In this document: positions 17,062 through 43,943 of the stretch, piece by piece | Position numbering within the stretch: the stretch's first letter is position 1 | Layout of the letters: the number at the start of each line of letters is the position of its first letter | Assembly: GCA_029259175.1 (NCBI GenBank) | Contig: JAPDJH010000002.1 | Location: forward strand, 32,001 to 96,000 | Direction of reading: 5' to 3' | DNA length: 64,000 nt | Source of the DNA: Hadesarchaea archaeon | GTDB taxonomy: Archaea > Hadarchaeota > Hadarchaeia > Hadarchaeales > Hadarchaeaceae | Notes under the pieces: model-generated | Told to the model about the DNA's origin: nothing | The model's database searches: none | What the model saw: the letters and a program-made list of their open reading frames with translations, nothing else | Position numbers and translations under genes: made by a program

Positions 17062-18297
17062 ATGGCCAGCTTCGACCTGGTGATCAAGAACGCGAGGACG
17101 AGGGCAGATCCTAAGCAAACCGTGGAGATCGCGATAAGCAACGGCAAGATCGCGCGGATTGGACACTCCGTCGGGAAGGGTGACCAGGAAATTGATGCCG
17201 GAGGCGGCTTGGTCACGGAAAGCTTTGTGAACGCTCACCTGCACATGTGCAAAGTGTACACCTTGGAAATGATTGGGGAGGATGCGATGCGGGCATACCA
17301 AGAGGGAGGCATGGACAAAGCGATGATCGCGATTGAGCTGGCCTCCAAGGTCAAGCGCAAGTACAAAGCGGACTGGATTTACGAGAACGCAAAACGCGCT
17401 TTGCTTCTCGGAATCAAACACGGTGTTCTGCACTACCGCGCGTTCGTGGACACCGATACCAAAGGAAAGCTGGAGGGCATCAAAGCTCTGCTCAAGCTAC
17501 GCGATGACTTCCGTGACCTGGTGGACTTGCAGGTGGTGGCGTTTCCCCAAGACGGTGTTGTTCGCGATCCGGGAAGCGAAGCGCTTGTGCGAAAGGCTGT
17601 GGAGCTCGGAGCCGATGTGGTTGGCGGTATCCCTTGGATCGAGTACACCGAGGAAGACGCCCAGCGCCATGTGGATTTGATGTTTGACATCGCGGTGGAG
17701 CACAATCGAGACATTGCCATGCTCACTGATGACGCGGGAGATCCGGGACTGCGCACCACAGAGATGCTCGTGCGCCGAGGCATCAAAGAGGGATGGACTG
17801 GAAGGGTAGAGATCTGCCATGCTCGTGCCATGCAGCTTTATCCCGGCCCGTACTTCGAGAAGCTCGTGGCGCTGCTGAAGCGATGCGACGCGGGAGTCGT
17901 TTCCGATCCGCACACCGGACCGCTCCACGCCCGTGTTTTTGAACTGCTCCAGCACGGCGTGACAGTAGCTCTGGGTCAGGACGACATTGCCGACGCCTAC
18001 TATCCCTACGGCCAGAACTCCATGCTTGAAGTGGCCTTCTTGGCCTCTCACCTGTTGTGGGCGACCACCTTTCACAAAATGGACGTTCTCTACGACATGA
18101 TCACCGTGAATCCAGCCAAAATTTTGAGATTGTCGGCTTACGGGCTCAAAGAGGGTAGCCGTGCTGATCTGGTGGTGCTAGGGGCGCGCTCGGTGTATGA
18201 GGCCCTGACGTACCAAGACCCGCCGCGGTACGTGATACGAGCTGGCAGGGTGATCGCTGAAAACATCGCTGAGACCAAGTACGGGTTCTCCCTTTAG
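17062..18297 (+). CDS. Cytosine/creatinine deaminase-like amidohydrolase
   Basis: AHLH, QVVAFPQDG, GGIP, CHA, GQDDIADAYYPYG. Confidence 0.85.
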   Translation: MASFDLVIKNARTRADPKQTVEIAISNGKIARIGHSVGKGDQEIDAGGGLVTESFVNAHLHMCKVYTLEMIGEDAMRAYQEGGMDKAMIAIELASKVKRKYKADWIYENAKRALLLGIKHGVLHYRAFVDTDTKGKLEGIKALLKLRDDFRDLVDLQVVAFPQDGVVRDPGSEALVRKAVELGADVVGGIPWIEYTEEDAQRHVDLMFDIAVEHNRDIAMLTDDAGDPGLRTTEMLVRRGIKEGWTGRVEICHARAMQLYPGPYFEKLVALLKRCDAGVVSDPHTGPLHARVFELLQHGVTVALGQDDIADAYYPYGQNSMLEVAFLASHLLWATTFHKMDVLYDMITVNPAKILRLSAYGLKEGSRADLVVLGARSVYEALTYQDPPRYVIRAGRVIAENIAETKYGFSL

Positions 18298-36518: not shown

Positions 36519-38066
36519 GTGTCCAGTATACTCGTGAAGCGCATCCGTTTGAGACTTAGACCCCTGGACATGGAAACCGGCCGCCACATAGTAGTGCTCC
36601 ACGAGCGGGACTCCCAGCAGCTGGGCCACATGCCGGGAAGCCGGATCAGGATAGGAGCCAATGGAAGAGAGTACGTGATGATCGCCAACGTTAGCGGTCG
36701 TTTGGTCGAACCCGGGGAGCTGGGCACGTTCATTGAGGCCACAGAGATTCTGGGATTGAAGCAGGGAGCGGAAGTGGAGGTCTCGCTTGCTCCGCAACCC
36801 GCTTCCATTTCAGCGATAAAGAAGAAGTTGCGCGGGGAAAGCCTCTCCGCCGAGGAAATTGGAACTATCGTCCGCGATATTGTTTCCAACAATCTTACGA
36901 CTACCGAGCTAACGGCTTTTATCGTTGCACAGTACACCCGTGGAATGTCGATGGAGGAAATAGTTGCTCTAACACGGCACATGGTAGAAACCGGCGAGAA
37001 ACTGGAGTTCGACACGAAACCCATTCTGGACGTCCACAGCATCGGCGGCGTTCCCGGAAACAAGTATGCCCTGCTGACCGTGCCCATTGTTTCAGCCGCC
37101 GGACTCAAAGTGCCGAAGACCAGCAGCAGGGCCATTACGAGCGCTGCGGGCACGGCGGATGTGATGGAGGTCTTGGCCCCCGTGGATCTGTCGCTGGAGG
37201 AAATCAAGCGAATAGTGAATCGTGTAGGGGCAGTGCTCGCGTGGGGGGGCGCCGTGCGACTTGCCCCCGCAGACGATATAATAATTCAGGTTGAACGCCA
37301 TCTCGGCATAGACCCTCGTTGCCAGCTCTTGGCTAGCGTCATGTCCAAAAAATTGGCCGTGGGTGCTGATCGGGTCGTCATCGACATCCCCACAGGTCTC
37401 GGGGCCAAAGTCTGTACGCGCGAAGAAGCCCGCGAGCTTGCCCACGACTTCATCGAGCTGGCCCGACGCGTGGACGTGCAGATGGAGGTGGCGGTGACCT
37501 ATGGCGGACAGCCCGTGGGCTACGCCGTGGGTCCAGCTCTCGAAGCAAAGGAAGCCCTCGAGGCGTTAAAAGGAGAGGGCCCGGGAAGTCTGATTGAGAA
37601 GGCCACGAGCCTCGCAGGCTTGATGCTTGAACTCGGCGAGGTGGCCCCACCCGGGCTGGGCAAGCAAATGGCCAAGGACATCTTGAGATCAGGACGTGCT
37701 CTGGAGCAGTTGCGAAAAATTATCGAGGCCCAGGGCGGGGATCCAAAGATCGATTCAGGTGATCTCCCGATAGGACAGTACAAGCAAGTGATAGAATCTC
37801 CAGCCTCCGGATATGTGAAACGCGTCTACAATGAGCGCATCAACGCCATAGCCCGAGCCGCTGGAGCGCCCATTGACAAAGGCGCAGGTGTTCGCATTCT
37901 CCTAAAAGAGGGGCGGAAGGTGGAACGCGGAGAACCTCTAGTAGAAATCTATGCCGAGCACGAGAACAAACTCGATGAGGCGATCGCGGTTGCCAAGCAA
38001 AACTTCCCGGTTCTGATCGAGGGGATGCTTTTGGAAAAACTCGCGCACCGCCCGCACCTAGAATGA
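36519..38066 (+). CDS. AMP phosphorylase
   Basis: N-terminal archaeal domain, HSIGGVPGNK, PKTSSRAITSAAGTAD, APADD, GPALEA. Confidence 0.92.
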   Translation: MSSILVKRIRLRLRPLDMETGRHIVVLHERDSQQLGHMPGSRIRIGANGREYVMIANVSGRLVEPGELGTFIEATEILGLKQGAEVEVSLAPQPASISAIKKKLRGESLSAEEIGTIVRDIVSNNLTTTELTAFIVAQYTRGMSMEEIVALTRHMVETGEKLEFDTKPILDVHSIGGVPGNKYALLTVPIVSAAGLKVPKTSSRAITSAAGTADVMEVLAPVDLSLEEIKRIVNRVGAVLAWGGAVRLAPADDIIIQVERHLGIDPRCQLLASVMSKKLAVGADRVVIDIPTGLGAKVCTREEARELAHDFIELARRVDVQMEVAVTYGGQPVGYAVGPALEAKEALEALKGEGPGSLIEKATSLAGLMLELGEVAPPGLGKQMAKDILRSGRALEQLRKIIEAQGGDPKIDSGDLPIGQYKQVIESPASGYVKRVYNERINAIARAAGAPIDKGAGVRILLKEGRKVERGEPLVEIYAEHENKLDEAIAVAKQNFPVLIEGMLLEKLAHRPHLE

Positions 38067-38612
38067 TCAGAGAATGAAGACCGCAGCGGCCACGACGGTC
38101 GTCCACATCCCTTCCTTCACGAGCGCCGTCTGGGTGATGTTGGTAGTTCTGACTATCTTTCCCGAGATCTTCCATATCTGCTTTCTCTCATCCCAGCTTT
38201 TGTTTGGATCGAAGGGGAGCCCCAAGGAGCTCGCCAACATGGATGCTGCCAGATCCTCCGCGTACTCGCCCGCTTCCTTGGCTGTCTGACCGTATGCGTG
38301 GTGCTCACTGATGTAGCCAATGGTCTTCTTGTCGGCCGGTAGAGCACACCCGATGCTCGCCGATATCAGCCTTCGCCGCTCGTTGCTCGCACACCGCGAC
38401 ATCACCAAGAACACTATCTGACCATCGGACAGCATGGAGAGCGCTCTTTTTCTGGAGATGACCTTGCACCCCGGCGGCACTATGCTGGAGACCGGGACCA
38501 AGTTGAATCGGGCTATCCCGGCGTCCTCCAAGGCGTTCTCGAAAGATCTCAACATCTCTCTGTCGTGTCCCACACCCTTCGTTAGGAATAGATACTTGGG
38601 AACGAGGTTCAT
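38067..38612 (-). CDS. pdaD: Pyruvoyl-dependent arginine decarboxylase
   Basis: SFENALEDAGIARFNLVPVSSI self-cleavage motif, GYISEH. Confidence 0.92.
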   Translation of the reverse strand: MNLVPKYLFLTKGVGHDREMLRSFENALEDAGIARFNLVPVSSIVPPGCKVISRKRALSMLSDGQIVFLVMSRCASNERRRLISASIGCALPADKKTIGYISEHHAYGQTAKEAGEYAEDLAASMLASSLGLPFDPNKSWDERKQIWKISGKIVRTTNITQTALVKEGMWTTVVAAAVFIL

Positions 38613-38621
38613 GCGAGTCCC

Positions 38622-40274
38622 TTATTCCTCTTCGCCGCCGCCCTCCTCTCCTCCGGGGGTCTCAGGGGACTTCGGGCCCTTCTCCTCCTTCTTGCTGGCC
38701 GCGATCACATCATCAATCCTCAGGATCATGATGGCAGCTTCGCTGGCGGACTTGATGGCCTGCGTTTTGGTTCTTAGCGGCTCAAGAACTCCGAGCTTCT
38801 TCATGTCCACAATTTTTCCGTTGTACACGTCGATTCCGTATGTCTTCCCATCCGGCTTTTCGTGCTTCGCCCTCAGCTCCACGAGCACATCGATCGCGTC
38901 TAGACCCGCGTTTTCCGCCAGAGTTTTCGGAATGACCTCCACCGCGTTGGCGAAGGCGTTGATGGCCAGCGCTTCCTTACCGCCAACCTTCTGGGCGTAG
39001 TTTCTAAGCTCCTTTGCGAGCTCCACTTCCGGAGCTCCACCTCCCATCACTATCTTCCCGTCCTCGATGGCTGCGGCCACTACCGAGAGCGCATCGTGAA
39101 GCGCGCGCTCGACCTCGTCCACCACGTGCTCGCTCCCACCGCGAACGAGGATTCCAACCGCCTTGGGGTTCTTGCACTTTCTCACGAAAGTCATTTTGTC
39201 CTCTCCAATCCTCACTTCCTCCACAAGCCCGGCGGATCCCAAGTCCTCAGCAGTGAGCTCCTCCAAGTTGTTGACTATGCGCCCCCCGGTGGCTCTGGCC
39301 AGCTTCTCCATATCGGATTTCTTCGCCCGCCTCACCGCATAGATTCCGGCTTTTGCCAAGTAGTGCTGTGCGATGTCATCGATCCCCTTCTGGCAGATTA
39401 CGACATTCGCTCCGGTGCTCACGATCTTGTCCACCATTTCTTTCAGGATCTTTTCTTCTTCCTCGATGAACGCGCGGAGTTGAGAAGGATCAGAAATTCG
39501 GATCTCCGCATCGGTTTCCGTCTTTTTGATTTCGAGCGGAGCGTCGATCAACGCAATCTTAGCGTCCTTCACTCGCTTGGGCATACCCGGGTGCACGCGC
39601 TCTTTGTCGACGATCACTCCCTCTACGAGTTCCGAATCAAAAGTGCTCTTGCCCGGTTTTTTCTCCACACCGATATAGTCGATGTCTATCACATAGCGGT
39701 CTCCCACTTTGTCGGCGATCTGCTTGACCGCCTTCACCGCCAGCTCCGCCAAGTATTCGCGGGCGCTTTCGGCCTTCTTTCCCGTCATGGCTGTCATGGC
39801 GATTTGCTTGAGGGTTTCCTCGTCCTCGATACTCACAGGGATAGCGACCTTGTTCAGAGTCTCCTGAGCCTTCTCGGCGGCCATCCGGTATCCAATCGCG
39901 ATTATAGTGGGGTGAATGGCCTGATCGAGCAGTTTCTCGGCTTCCTTTAGGAGCTCCCCGCCGATCACCACCGCGGTTGTGGTTCCATCACCCACCAGAT
40001 CATCCTGAGTTTTGGCAACCTCCACCATCATTTTTGCGGCTGGATGCTCTACCTCCATTTCCTTCAGAATGGTCACGCCGTCGTTTGTCACTATTACATC
40101 TCCCAGCGTGTCGACCAGCATCTTATCCATTCCACGGGGGCCGAGGGTGGTGCGAACAGCTTCGGCTATCACCCGGGCCGCCATGATGTTCATCCGCTGA
40201 GCATCACGCCCCACGGTCCGCCTCGTTCCCTCGGGCAGGATTAGAACTGGGCGTCCACCGAGTGTTGCACTCAT
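38622..40274 (-). CDS. ths: Thermosome (group II chaperonin) subunit
   Basis: [29 protein letters not shown]. Confidence 0.97.
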
Positions 40275-40321
40275 AGAAATTCACCTCTATTTGTGAAGAT
40301 TTGGTCTCAGCCTTTTAAACT

Positions 40322-42775
40322 TTACGCTTGTTTTATTTCTGCGACTATCCTTCTCGCCGCTCTTTCTGGATTGCTGGTGTTGTATATCGCGCTCCCGGCT
40401 ATACAGATATCTGCACCGGCCCTCACAACCTCTTTTGCCACACCCTCTTTGATGCCGCCAGCGACGGCCAGCAGGAAGGGCCGGCACCGCTTTTTCGCTT
40501 CAGCGATGAGCGTGGTAGAATCGTAGATCCCTCTCCCCCTGAGTTGCTCGCTTATTCCTCGGTGCAGGCAGAATATCACGTGGTTTTCCCTTCCCTCAAA
40601 TTGTCTGGCGAGTTCTTCTATCAAGGCGATCGGGTCGGGACAATCGATGAAGTCGATGAGTATCGCTCTGTTCCACCTGATCGCCTCGCTGAGAGCTTCG
40701 AATATTTTGGTTCGTCCTCCGATGCCTAGAACGGCCGCTATGTCGGCTCCGGCCCTGAACGCGATCTTGGCCTCCAGATTTCCAACATCCATGGTTTTCA
40801 GATCCGCGACTATCAGCGCGTCTGGAGCCACCTTGCGGAGTTCTGGAATCAGACGATCGGTTCCGTGGCGTTTGAGGGCGGGCGTTCCCGCTTCAACGAT
40901 TTGAGCTCCGCCGCGATAAGCCGCGCGTGCTATCCTGACCACGGTTTTCAAATCCGCGTCTAGATCGAGGGCCACCTGAAGCGCCGGGCATCTGAGACGT
41001 TCGATTGGAGTGATCCCCACCGGAATCTCTTTTGCCCGCTTGGGTGTCTTTAACTTGAGCATTCTGCTCGGCACACCTCTCTTGCCCCATCCTCTGAGCT
41101 TGTAGTATCTTTGAAGCATTTGAGTGAGATCGAGCCCGAACTCCGCGGGTAGACGATCTTGGGCTGGTTCGAATCCCTCTCGCACGTTGAATCTCCGCTC
41201 TACGTCGTAGATACGCGCTCCCACCTCTCTCAGGTGTTTTTCCGTCCACATGACTCCAGTCAAAGCAGTGAGGAGCTCCGCGAAATCGTAGAGTTCGAAG
41301 TCCAAGGTGGAGAAGAGCGCCAGCGAATGATATTTGCACACGACCAGAGAATCGTAAACTGCCGACGCGTCTTGCAGTCGCTTCACCAGCTCGGGCTTGC
41401 CGTCTTCCGTTTGTGGATCCACGAACTCCGGATGGCCTAGAATCTCGGGGTCTATCGTGTACGCCCGCAGATGACATCCGCCGCGATTCGAAGTGGCGTA
41501 GGCGAGCGCTATTCCCTTTGCACCGCGGGGGTCATAAGCCGGGAGTTCTAGCTTTTTGCAATGAGGAACGAAGACCTTCAGCTTGAGCTTCTTTGCTGCT
41601 GCGACGGTTCCGAGAGAAAACGGAGACTTGCCGCGCCCGATGTCGTTCACCAGCCGAACCGCATCTTCAAAATTTCTGCAAATTCCAGCCTTCCTCGCCA
41701 CTCCGAGCGCAACACCCATCGATATGGTGTCGAGCCCCAGTTCATCGCAGATGGCGCTGAGCTTGGCAATCTGCTGGTAATCGAAGAAGCCGGCGTTGGG
41801 CCCAAGCATGACGATGCTTTCATATTCCGGTCCCTTTCCTTCCCAATTCTTGACCCGCACCCAGCGCCCGCAGCCAGTGGGACAGCCGAAGCAGGCGATT
41901 TTTTTGACCAGGTATCGTTCGCGCACCGTTTCGCCTGAGAACGGATCCACATCTTCGAAGCTCAGTTCCTTTCCGGAAAAATTCCAGGCTGGCAGCAATC
42001 CGCCCGCTGTGATGCGGTGGACGAGCATCGCGGTTCCGAAGCGAGCCAGGGTGCCATCTGTTCCCGTTATCGGATTGGTTTCTATGACTTTTCGCACCCG
42101 AGTGAGAATTTTCTGAAATTCGGGTGGATGAGCCACAGGCACGCGCTTGGTACCCCGCACGACAACGGCTTTGAGGTTTTTGGAACCCATCACGGCTCCC
42201 CCTCCGCATCGCCCGGCCACCCCCATCCGCCCTTCCCGGTTTCCCGTGACTACACACGCCATTCGGGCTAGGTTTTCACCTGCTGGTCCAATGGTTGCGA
42301 TAGAGAACTGCGGGTAACGGTCAAGCAGCTCCTCGATGGTCTCCAAAGTCGACTTGCCCCAGAGTTCCGTGGCGTCGTGTAGGGTGACTTTGTCGTCATC
42401 GATTTCAATATAGACCGGTTTTTTGCTTCTTCCCTGAACGATCAGCCCGTCGAAACCCGCCCGTTTGAGCCAAGCTCCGAAGAAGCCGCCCATGGACGAA
42501 TCAGCTATGGTACCCGTTAGCGGGGACTTGAAAACCACAGCTGTTCGTCCGCTTCCGGGAAAGGGTGTTCCGGTCAGCGGGCCCGTCATGAAAATCAAGC
42601 GATTAGCGGGTCCGAGTGGACCGGTTCCTCGTTTTAGCTCACGGTAAAGAATCCATGCGCCGTACCCTCTGCCACCCAAAAAATTGAACGCGATTTTCGG
42701 ATCGAGCAGTTCCGTGTTTATGGTTCCTGAATTCAAATCCACTCTCAGGAGTTTCCCGGCATAGCCACCCTTCAT
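40322..42775 (-). CDS. Aldehyde:ferredoxin oxidoreductase (W/Mo-pterin) fused to 3-hexulose-6-phosphate synthase
   Basis: AOR: GYAGKLLRVDL, KSPLTG, MGSKNLKA, CFGCPTGC, DELGLDTIS, RGGCH; from aa 599 HPS: LQVALD, EAGTP, DLKTMDVG, AGAD, VAGGI, GSAI. Confidence 0.88.
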   Translation of the reverse strand: MKGGYAGKLLRVDLNSGTINTELLDPKIAFNFLGGRGYGAWILYRELKRGTGPLGPANRLIFMTGPLTGTPFPGSGRTAVVFKSPLTGTIADSSMGGFFGAWLKRAGFDGLIVQGRSKKPVYIEIDDDKVTLHDATELWGKSTLETIEELLDRYPQFSIATIGPAGENLARMACVVTGNREGRMGVAGRCGGGAVMGSKNLKAVVVRGTKRVPVAHPPEFQKILTRVRKVIETNPITGTDGTLARFGTAMLVHRITAGGLLPAWNFSGKELSFEDVDPFSGETVRERYLVKKIACFGCPTGCGRWVRVKNWEGKGPEYESIVMLGPNAGFFDYQQIAKLSAICDELGLDTISMGVALGVARKAGICRNFEDAVRLVNDIGRGKSPFSLGTVAAAKKLKLKVFVPHCKKLELPAYDPRGAKGIALAYATSNRGGCHLRAYTIDPEILGHPEFVDPQTEDGKPELVKRLQDASAVYDSLVVCKYHSLALFSTLDFELYDFAELLTALTGVMWTEKHLREVGARIYDVERRFNVREGFEPAQDRLPAEFGLDLTQMLQRYYKLRGWGKRGVPSRMLKLKTPKRAKEIPVGITPIERLRCPALQVALDLDADLKTVVRIARAAYRGGAQIVEAGTPALKRHGTDRLIPELRKVAPDALIVADLKTMDVGNLEAKIAFRAGADIAAVLGIGGRTKIFEALSEAIRWNRAILIDFIDCPDPIALIEELARQFEGRENHVIFCLHRGISEQLRGRGIYDSTTLIAEAKKRCRPFLLAVAGGIKEGVAKEVVRAGADICIAGSAIYNTSNPERAARRIVAEIKQA

Positions 42776-42842
42776 TTAACCATATGGTTATCACCGTTAT
42801 CTAAAAAGACATTTGCAGACGGAGTAGTGTTGGTGGCCAGCA

Positions 42843-43943
42843 GTGGAGGAATTTTTGAGAAAAGCGCGAGTTCTTCTTCGCGAAACCAAGCGGGTGTTCG
42901 CTGATTGCGCGACCAAGAGTGGCGGGATCCTGGCAGCCAATCCAGCCAAGCCGTATTATCCGAGAGGGGCTGCGAACTACGGGTATGTGTGGGTACGGGA
43001 CGCGTCTTTTGTTTGTGTCGCTGCGGACGTGTTGGAGTTGGGAATTCAGGAAAAGTTCTTTGAGTGGTGCATGCGGGCTGAGCGCTTTCCGGGAACCACA
43101 CTCTTTTGTCGCCGCTATCACCCGGATGGAACGGCTCTGGCCGCGGGCGAGGGCCTCGGAGGCGAAATCGAGAACCAGCTCCAGCCGGATCAGGCGGGGG
43201 CCCTGTTGTGGGCGCTGTGGCACCACTTCAGGGAGGATCCGTCAGAGGCGAGGGACTTCCGGCCGCTGATTCGCGAAGTTGCGGATGGGTTGTGCGAACT
43301 CTGGAAAAAGAACAGGTTTGACATGGTGGTGTTCGATGTGTGGGAGGAGCAGGCTGCCTTTCCAGACCTCGATGAGTTTTTTTCTTACACACTCGCGGCC
43401 TGTGCTGGTGGTCTCAGATATGCAGGCGCTCTGTTTCCGAATCCGCGCTGGCAAAAAACAGCGGATCAAATGGTCTCGGTTTTAAGAAGAACTCCCGGAA
43501 AGCGGTTTTTCCGAAGTTATGGGCGGATACCCGATCCGGAGGTGGACGCCTCTCTGCTTGGGTTGGTGTTCCCGTTTGAGGTTTTCTCACATGCTCATCC
43601 GAAAATCCGAAGGACGATTGCCGATATCGAGAAGGAGCTAGTGATCGGCGGAGGGCTTCATCGCTACCCCGGCGATAGATACGATGGCTGGGTGTACGAG
43701 GGAAAGATGTTGAGGCAGAAGGGCGGGGGCGCGTGGCCGCTGCTCAACTTTTGGCTGAGCGTGTGCCACGCGCGGGCAGGGAACAAGAGGAGGGCTCTTC
43801 GGTATGCGCGGTGGGTGCTTCGGCGCGTGAACAGACACATTCCGGAGCAGATTTTCCCTAATCGGTTGCAGGTTTCTCCATCTCCTCTGGCTTGGGCGCA
43901 CGCCATGTTTGTGCTGGCCATGCGAGAACTCAGGATCGTGTGA
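42843..43943 (+). CDS. GH15-like glycoside hydrolase, catalytic domain only
   Basis: YVWVRDA, Q.DQ.G, DVWEE, DASL, RYPGDRY, PEQ, PLAWAHA. Confidence 0.85.
   Translation: MEEFLRKARVLLRETKRVFADCATKSGGILAANPAKPYYPRGAANYGYVWVRDASFVCVAADVLELGIQEKFFEWCMRAERFPGTTLFCRRYHPDGTALAAGEGLGGEIENQLQPDQAGALLWALWHHFREDPSEARDFRPLIREVADGLCELWKKNRFDMVVFDVWEEQAAFPDLDEFFSYTLAACAGGLRYAGALFPNPRWQKTADQMVSVLRRTPGKRFFRSYGRIPDPEVDASLLGLVFPFEVFSHAHPKIRRTIADIEKELVIGGGLHRYPGDRYDGWVYEGKMLRQKGGGAWPLLNFWLSVCHARAGNKRRALRYARWVLRRVNRHIPEQIFPNRLQVSPSPLAWAHAMFVLAMRELRIV

Follow-up and report, generated by a model that had tools for sequence, protein, structure and literature searches.

An aldehyde oxidoreductase-hexulose phosphate synthase fusion conserved in several archaeal phyla: a candidate enzyme of reverse ribulose monophosphate pentose synthesis

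In a 64,000-nucleotide stretch of DNA from a Hadesarchaea archaeon (assembly GCA_029259175.1, contig JAPDJH010000002.1, positions 32,001–96,000 of the forward strand; hereafter the window, whose numbering is used unless another contig is named), we analyzed a gene that joins an enzyme of the aldehyde ferredoxin oxidoreductase (AOR) family to a C-terminal barrel of the HPS (synthase of 3-hexulose-6-phosphate) type. The gene is intact, and the same architecture occurs in several archaeal phyla. We propose, with a probability of about 0.6, that the protein functions in pentose synthesis by the reversed ribulose monophosphate (RuMP) pathway, its AOR half oxidizing the released formaldehyde to formate with reduction of ferredoxin.

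Many archaea make pentoses by the reversed RuMP pathway, in which one formaldehyde is released per pentose. In methanogens, Fae-Hps hands this formaldehyde to tetrahydromethanopterin (H4MPT); to our knowledge, its fate is unclear for archaea without H4MPT. In the proposed mechanism, fructose-6-phosphate from gluconeogenesis would be converted to D-arabino-3-hexulose-6-phosphate by a stand-alone 6-phospho-3-hexuloisomerase (PHI), and the HPS barrel of the fusion would cleave this compound to ribulose-5-phosphate and formaldehyde. RpiA would convert ribulose-5-phosphate to ribose-5-phosphate, and the N-terminal half, carrying tungsto- or molybdopterin and one [4Fe-4S] cluster, would oxidize formaldehyde to formate on the same polypeptide and reduce ferredoxin. 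The removal of formaldehyde would pull the unfavourable cleavage, avert toxicity, and regain two low-potential electrons. The fusion would do the same job as methanogen Fae-Hps without H4MPT.

Integrity and conservation of the fused gene

A preliminary description of this gene, made from the DNA letters, had read one open reading frame (ORF) of 817 amino acids (aa) with a full HPS barrel from residue 599. Both readings were borne out by the single uninterrupted frame on the minus strand (40322–42775) and by the Pfam OMPdecase/HUMPS match to residues 598–810. All three Pfam domains of the protein scored far above their gathering scores (Table 1).

A 3177-nt contig from a sequencing run of a different study (X6) covered 40200–42900 with 35 substitutions and zero insertions or deletions. 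Within the fusion ORF, these changes comprised 21 silent ones and 14 amino-acid replacements, and none produced a stop. A 407-nt contig from another run (X5) covered 40870–41276, crossing the linker between the two halves. Among the best 120 matches in a collection of 5.8 billion proteins, 112, including the window's own cluster, contained AFOR_N, AFOR_C, and OMPdecase in one chain; the remaining eight were one N-terminally truncated protein and seven AORs of about 562–571 aa without a barrel. The fused matches came from Hadarchaeota (Hadarchaeales; the closest, with 63–66% identity), Bathyarchaeia, Hodarchaeales (Hodarchaeota), Nezhaarchaeales, Methanomethylicaceae (Methanomethylicota), and Thermoprotei. 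The ESM Atlas contained a 61-member cluster with the same three-domain architecture. No stop or misassembly at the junction, one of the refuting outcomes that the preliminary description had named, was seen in the X6 contig or suggested by the fused homologues. These results confirm that the fusion is a real gene and not an assembly artefact. Pieces of both halves were also present in contigs from two RNA libraries, which gives a weak hint that the fusion is transcribed; none of the RNA contigs covered 41003–41169, so they did not bridge the junction.

The two halves and their junction

Glu313 and His448 of Pyrococcus furiosus AOR have a role near the tungsten site. The N-terminal half of the fusion contained both AOR-family Pfam domains, the four [4Fe-4S] cysteines, and the active-site pair E319 and H435, and the printed alignment with P. 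furiosus AOR (1aor) shows the CxxCxxxC motif, the distal cysteine, and the equivalents of Glu313 and His448. To examine conservation, the query was aligned by MAFFT with 107 fused database proteins of 780–870 aa (n = 108). C295, C298, C302, C480, E317, E319, H435, D349, D475, and R189 were invariant in 108/108, and the AOR half looks catalytically intact. Its scores against solved structures were 425 bits for 9mqx, 403 for 1aor, 391 for Clostridium autoethanogenum AOR (9g7j), 298 for formaldehyde ferredoxin oxidoreductase (FOR; 1b25), and 167 for WOR5. FOR was not the nearest solved relative, and by all sequence criteria tested, this half is a member of the AOR family and not of the FOR subfamily. 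It shares with the tungsten AORs 1aor, 9mqx, and 9g7j and with FOR the full AFOR_N and AFOR_C fold (TM 0.86–0.89) and retains their cluster cysteines and Glu/His pair. In a Foldseek search, TM was 0.89 to 9mqx_D, 0.88 to 1aor, and 0.85–0.89 to AORs overall. In contrast to these enzymes, only the fusion carries a C-terminal sugar-phosphate aldolase, and its AOR half is about 25–30 residues shorter than 1aor, with an alignment gap between query residues 361 and 406.

The AOR half forms its own clade, with a support of 100 in the Shimodaira–Hasegawa-like approximate likelihood ratio test (SH-aLRT), apart from the four unfused AOR paralogues of the same genome and not closest to FOR. When this half was searched alone against 1.84 billion representatives, split and fused forms ranked at the top (662, 640, and 481 bits), and unfused AORs scored 428 bits or less. 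A dedicated FOR paralogue was sought among the four unfused AORs and rejected, as these were AOR-like or ambiguous (C14: FOR 322 versus AOR 309 bits); NCBIfam models did not discriminate among the four.

The last third of the protein was matched by the NCBIfam models PRK07028 (142 bits), Fae-Hps NF009833 (139.7 bits), HxlAB (139 bits), and TIGR03128 (132.5 bits), and the competing models scored 55 and 36 bits (the decarboxylase of 3-keto-L-gulonate 6-phosphate, KGPDC) and 40 bits (OMP decarboxylase). The function of TIGR03128 (RuMP_HxlA) was thus top-scoring among the models of the OMPdecase suprafamily, yet the barrel belongs to a diverged clade. Its best solved matches were the HPS part of the Thermococcales HPS-PHI fusion (9lj9_B, 114 bits) and the stand-alone HPS of Mycobacterium gastri (3ajx, 102 bits), compared with 32 bits for KGPDC (1xbx); Foldseek found HPS and KGPDC barrels, with TM 0.87 to 3ajx. 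The residues that mark the suprafamily and HPS (beta-1 Asp, metal Glu, D-x-K-x-x-D, His, GG, and G-x-A-I) were all present. Invariant in 108/108 were D604, E628, G630-T631-P632, K635, D658, K660, D663, H738, and A772; the phosphate-binding G773 and G774, aligned to 9lj9 and 3ajx, were kept in 107/108. With these two references the barrel has in common the motifs LQVALD, E-x-GTP, D-x-K-x-x-D, H-x-G, AGG, and G-S/G-A-I. It differs from them in its N-terminal redox partner and in a Ser for the Asp of H-x-G-x-D-x-Q, and from 9lj9 in that PHI is encoded separately, on a different contig. In this suprafamily, the Asp of the D-x-K-x-x-D motif works across subunits, and the enzyme is expected to be a dimer.

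The KGPDC positions E112, R139, and T169, taken from PDB titles, were mapped by spacing only to D708, I741, and A772, the T169 equivalent being uncertain by one residue; the title of 1xbx names an R139V change. Residue 741, three residues after the catalytic His, was Ile in 106 of the 108 proteins and Val in the other 2. According to work on KGPDC, Ile or Val at this position is the HPS-like state. A KGPDC-type or inactive barrel, against which the preliminary description had warned, is argued against by the model scores and by the invariant residues. Judged from its sequence, the barrel is HPS-type, not KGPDC-type.

The linker showed low sequence conservation and a length that was fixed within each clade: 34–35 aa lay between YYxxRxW and LQVALD in 60/108 fused proteins and 24 aa in 44/108. 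The stretch P-x-LQVALD resembles Fae-Hps (KLFDPPY followed by LQVALD there), and the preliminary description had pointed to it as a sign of the fusion. This resemblance is real; the stretch also starts stand-alone HPS and HPS-RraA fusions and therefore belongs to the barrel, so that its reading as a fusion signature was dropped.

An AlphaFold2 model of the single chain, built from a 59-row alignment, had a mean predicted local distance difference test score (pLDDT) of 93.5 and a predicted TM score (pTM) of 0.89. The linker blocks were ordered (pLDDT 88, 78, and 93), and only the loop 743–750 fell below 50. No solved chain found by Foldseek covered both halves, AORs and barrels being matched separately. 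When the two halves were docked as separate chains, ipSAE was 0.36 (0.36, 0.26, and 0.39 in the individual runs) and 0.00 for the best control, with at least 96% contact agreement between runs and partner pLDDT of at least 90; in the benchmark, values of 0.60 or less comprised only 7 of 80 solved complexes together with both mismatches that passed. The benchmark mark was reached by 58 of these 80 complexes and 2 of 110 mismatches. The docking models lend weak support to a defined interface between the halves. A channel that hands formaldehyde from one half to the other, as the preliminary description suggested, is hypothetical.

Genomic context, proposed function, and alternatives

The assembly comprises 1.306 Mb in 23 contigs and is 90.9% complete, so that the absences reported here are subject to the missing 9%. 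In a profile search, the fusion was the sole HPS match of the genome. A stand-alone PHI gene was located on contig 6 (21001–21597, minus strand; 198.5 bits versus a cut-off of 160), in agreement with the earlier statement that the window holds no PHI gene. RpiA and the fructose-bisphosphate (FBP) aldolase/phosphatase were present, and Fae, Mch, and Transketolase_N were not found. Since the only HPS is accompanied by PHI and RpiA and no Transketolase_N was found, the only visible route to ribose-5-phosphate leads from fructose-6-phosphate through PHI and the fused HPS to RpiA. As predicted from the gene content, the formaldehyde released on this route is without an H4MPT route in the genome. 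Three loci with Mbh/Ech/Nuo-type large subunits were found, which are possible ferredoxin sinks. One of the unfused AOR paralogues lies at 17433–19412 of contig 6 on the minus strand, about 1.6 kb from PHI, which has the same orientation; other ORFs around PHI were not informative.

The same complementarity was observed elsewhere. Among 16 other genomes with a fused or split pair, Fae was found in 0/16, a stand-alone PHI above the cut-off in 14/16, with one more PHI cut by a contig end, and Mch in 2/16, both Bathyarchaeia. The suggestion in the preliminary description that the enzyme replaces Fae-Hps fits the absence of Fae both here and in these genomes. A Geothermarchaeales genome with a stand-alone barrel of clade A, the group of fused barrels beside Fae-HPS in a quick HPS tree, does carry Fae.

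Several observations weigh against the proposed function. The barrel missed the cut-off of 200 bits of TIGR03128 (132.5 bits, or 136.5 bits in the genome search); by its residues and genome context it is HPS-like, though below this curated cut-off. Residue 742, the Asp of H-x-G-x-D-x-Q in reference HPS, was Ser in 84, Asp in 23, and Thr in 1 of the 108 proteins. The AOR half is nearer to broad-range AORs than to the characterized FOR, and formaldehyde specificity is therefore not indicated by its sequence. Fdh-alpha, FTHFS, PurP, and FocA were not found in the genome, which showed no formate consumer or exporter, and PurT reached 63 bits versus a cut-off of 502, so there is no true PurT. Transketolase_N was present in 7/16 of the other fusion genomes, and RuMP is therefore not always the only pentose route. 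In a Hadarchaeia genome (G017), a stand-alone 242-aa clade-A HPS (L013:7956–8681) lies beside the same divergent upstream neighbour as the fused genes in L009–L011, and the best AOR-half match of this genome scored 442 bits versus 821 in a fused genome; from this synteny and weak match, the AOR partner appears to have been lost there and is thus dispensable in some relatives. None of the window neighbours of the fusion was kept beside it in other lineages. As destinations of the formate, purine synthesis was rejected for lack of PurP, FTHFS, and a true PurT in the genome, and oxidation or export for lack of Fdh-alpha and FocA.

Some of these points would be explained if the barrel, as a divergent HPS-like enzyme (aldolase or decarboxylase), used a different keto-sugar phosphate as its substrate, with the AOR half oxidizing or producing an aldehyde other than formaldehyde. 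We regard such a chemistry as unlikely. It is favoured by the scores of the AOR half (425/403 bits versus 298 for FOR), the missed TIGR03128 cut-off, the separate clade of the barrel (99 SH-aLRT), the clade-specific Asp-to-Ser change, and the extra residues before beta-6, but no HPS candidate besides the barrel was found in this genome, which has PHI and RpiA and in which no transketolase was found, and we know of no use of PHI without HPS. Also against it, the residues common to HPS and KGPDC are all invariant, and Ile or Val follows the catalytic His by three residues in 108/108, the HPS-like state named above.

A mainly reductive, assimilatory direction, in which the AOR half would use reduced ferredoxin to convert formate to formaldehyde and HPS would immediately condense formaldehyde with ribulose-5-phosphate to bring C1 units into sugar phosphates, seems very unlikely. 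AOR-family enzymes are reversible in vitro, and HPS favours condensation, which would pull the unfavourable reduction. A route from formate through formaldehyde to RuMP is hypothesized for a crenarchaeon, without this enzyme, in PMC7143981. Against this direction, Transketolase_N for the regeneration of ribulose-5-phosphate, Fdh-alpha, and a FocA-type formate channel were not found in the genome. The reduction of an acid by ferredoxin is also thermodynamically steep. The preliminary description had considered formate assimilation into RuMP as the reverse reaction; a net flux of this kind is unlikely here, given that the search for a transketolase that could regenerate ribulose-5-phosphate was negative. 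We likewise assign little probability to the broader view of the fusion as a reversible ferredoxin-linked module between formate, formaldehyde, and sugar phosphates, in which strongly reduced ferredoxin would allow formate to be reduced at the tungsten site and the formaldehyde to be trapped immediately on ribulose-5-phosphate. This would amount to a naturally occurring 'reductive formate-RuMP' route by which C1 units enter hexose phosphates anaerobically, with a true channel between the domains.

It is hardly credible that the HPS half is the sole enzyme, with the AOR half a scaffold without redox activity or a regulatory appendage: in some relatives, an HPS of this clade stands alone and a matching AOR is missing, but every checked AOR cofactor and catalytic residue is kept in 108/108 proteins from several phyla, and the variant contig has 21 silent versus 14 replacement changes over the gene. 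That assembly or gene calling joined two adjacent genes has a negligible probability, since an independent contig crosses the junction without an insertion or deletion, 112 of the best 120 matches are fused, and a fused ORF stands at 14 of 80 species-representative loci, even though split neighbours exist in a few relatives (L017 and L027).

Reverse-RuMP pentose synthesis coupled to formaldehyde oxidation thus remains the preferred reading. Within the preliminary description, the parts that stood were the real fusion, its intact halves, the HPS-type barrel, and the absence of Fae; the points corrected or weakened were the relation of the AOR half to FOR (425/403 bits to broad-range AORs versus 298 bits to P. 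furiosus FOR), the junction signature, and net formate assimilation.

Distribution, gene neighbourhood, and relation to Fae-Hps

The locus survey covered 80 species-representative loci found with the HPS-domain alignment: 14 fused ORFs (two cut by contig ends), 2 split pairs, 19 Fae-HPS, 24 HPS-RraA-like fusions, and 21 stand-alone or other forms. In its own phylum, the barrel was found in an open frame of at least 800 aa in 19 of 66 species genomes, fusion being judged on length alone. In Bathyarchaeia locus L017, a 580-aa AOR ORF is followed after a 3-nt gap by a 269-aa HPS ORF. Split forms nest within the fused clade in both trees, and the AORs of about 562 aa group with L017 inside the fused AOR clade (100 SH-aLRT); the AOR-HPS pairing therefore persists after the gene is split. 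A 242-aa frame like that of L013 was also seen in G061, a genome of the same genus in the phylum set. At G024:C14:11870–12561 and L027:2–1064, AOR and HPS parts abut in different frames or ORFs, which may reflect a frameshift, an error of sequencing, or a recent split of the gene.

In the quick HPS tree, the fused barrels fell into two clades, clade A beside Fae-HPS and another (clade B) among HPS-RraA fusions; in the quick AOR tree, the two fused clades stood in a polytomy. When all fused and split members were constrained together, the log-likelihood changed relative to the free quick tree by +41 for HPS (p-AU 0.863 in the approximately unbiased test) and by +88 for AOR (p-AU 0.946). The idea of two independent fusions was dropped, as these tests did not reject the joint grouping and the constrained trees were better. 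From the results on both trees, we argue neither for convergent fusion nor for one common origin. The clade-A barrels have about six extra residues before beta-6 (residues 721–733) as well as Ser742 (about 40550–40615). Three longer fused forms, P0104 (999 aa), P0118 (991 aa), and P0247 (992 aa), were placed in clade B in both trees.

Other architectures of HPS were also observed. C-terminal fusion of HPS to an RraA-like domain (PF03737; PRK07028) was the commonest, with 24/80 loci (L031–L060 and others) in Thermoplasmatota, Methanomassiliicoccaceae, and Njordarchaeota. Two frames of 616–619 aa from uncultured Thermoproteaceae (L019:6825–8672 and L018:2387–4243) consist of an N-terminal region of about 386 aa and a clade-A-type barrel; the region is conserved between the two, which have 35% identity over their whole length. 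For the N-terminal region, Pfam and the Atlas returned no match, and hhalign showed no resemblance to the AOR half. The idea that it is a decayed AOR was rejected, hhalign having aligned the HPS half only, and it may be a third N-terminal partner of HPS.

The features of the gene and its neighbours are listed in Table 1. A conserved operon partner such as ferredoxin or PHI was rejected, no neighbour being common across lineages and PHI lying on another contig. The thermosome gene downstream of the fusion has, from a reading of the letters, its own A/T-rich TATA-like box.

Table 1. Coordinates of the fusion gene, its domains and residues, and neighbouring genes in the window
Feature	Position	Strand	Basis or remark
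AOR-HPS fusion ORF	40322–42775	-	817 aa + stop, ATG start, zero internal stops (ORF listing, translation)
AFOR_N, residues 7–209	42149–42757	-	Pfam PF02730, E 1.4e-80, 270.2 bits (cut-off 29.8)
AFOR_C (AOR domains 2 and 3), residues 223–571	41063–42109	-	Pfam PF01314, E 8.1e-93, 312 bits (cut-off 27)
[4Fe-4S] cysteines C295-x2-C298-x3-C302	41870–41893	-	Alignment to 1aor
Fourth [4Fe-4S] cysteine, C480	41336–41338	-	Alignment to 1aor
E319 (P. furiosus AOR Glu313)	41819–41821	-	Printed alignment to 1aor
H435 (P. furiosus AOR His448)	41471–41473	-	Printed alignment to 1aor
Linker, residues 572–597	40985–41062	-	Conservation map
HPS-type OMPdecase-suprafamily barrel (OMPdecase/HUMPS), residues 598–810	40346–40984	-	Pfam PF00215, E 1.2e-24
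D658-x-K660-x-x-D663 motif of HPS barrel	40787–40804	-	Aligned to ADLKTMD of 9lj9 and 3ajx
Other conserved HPS residues: D604, E628		-	Alignment to 9lj9 and 3ajx
Other conserved HPS residue: H738	40562–40564	-	Alignment to 9lj9 and 3ajx
Candidate A/T-rich TATA-like box TTTTTAGATAA	42797–42807	-	22–32 nt upstream of fusion ATG; sequence reading only
AMP/thymidine-phosphorylase-like gene	36519–38066	+	Neighbour
Pyruvoyl arginine decarboxylase	38067–38612	-	Neighbour
Thermosome subunit	38622–40274	-	Neighbour
GH15-like gene	42843–43943	+	Neighbour; weak match

The closest known parallel in design is the bifunctional Fae-Hps enzyme of methanogens and relatives, reportedly described by Goenrich et al. 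in 2005. Both proteins have an N-terminal module that handles, or in the fusion would handle, formaldehyde and a C-terminal HPS barrel that begins with P-x-LQVALD ahead of beta-1, and the Fae-HPS barrels are sister to clade A in the quick HPS tree (90 SH-aLRT). The proposed role is also the same, namely, the formation of ribose-5-phosphate through reverse RuMP, the formaldehyde being captured at once. The partner, in contrast, is an oxidoreductase of about 580 aa of the tungstopterin/[4Fe-4S] type here and Fae of about 160 aa there, and the product would be formate and reduced ferredoxin instead of methylene-H4MPT. H4MPT would not be needed, and Mch was found neither here nor in 14/16 fusion genomes. 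NF009833 matched only the HPS part of the fusion, with 139.7 bits versus a cut-off of 274, and the Fae domain (PF08714) was not found in the protein or in the genome. Because it has no Fae domain, the fusion is a functional analogue of Fae-Hps and not a member of that family.

The preliminary description did not recall this architecture as characterized, and no description of an AOR-HPS fusion was found in the literature searched; supplementary AOR trees or gene tables (e.g., PMC11291895) could list such genes. The fusion is conserved yet apparently uncharacterized and akin to the bifunctional HPS fusions. Its conservation in this phylum and in several other archaeal phyla offers a concrete answer to the question of formaldehyde fate in archaea without H4MPT: it would be oxidized where it arises, and low-potential electrons would be regained. 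If this is true, a physiological substrate would be assigned to one clade of the large and mostly unassigned AOR family, and the fusion would be a natural template for coupling an aldolase to an oxidoreductase, which is of interest to engineered C1 metabolism.

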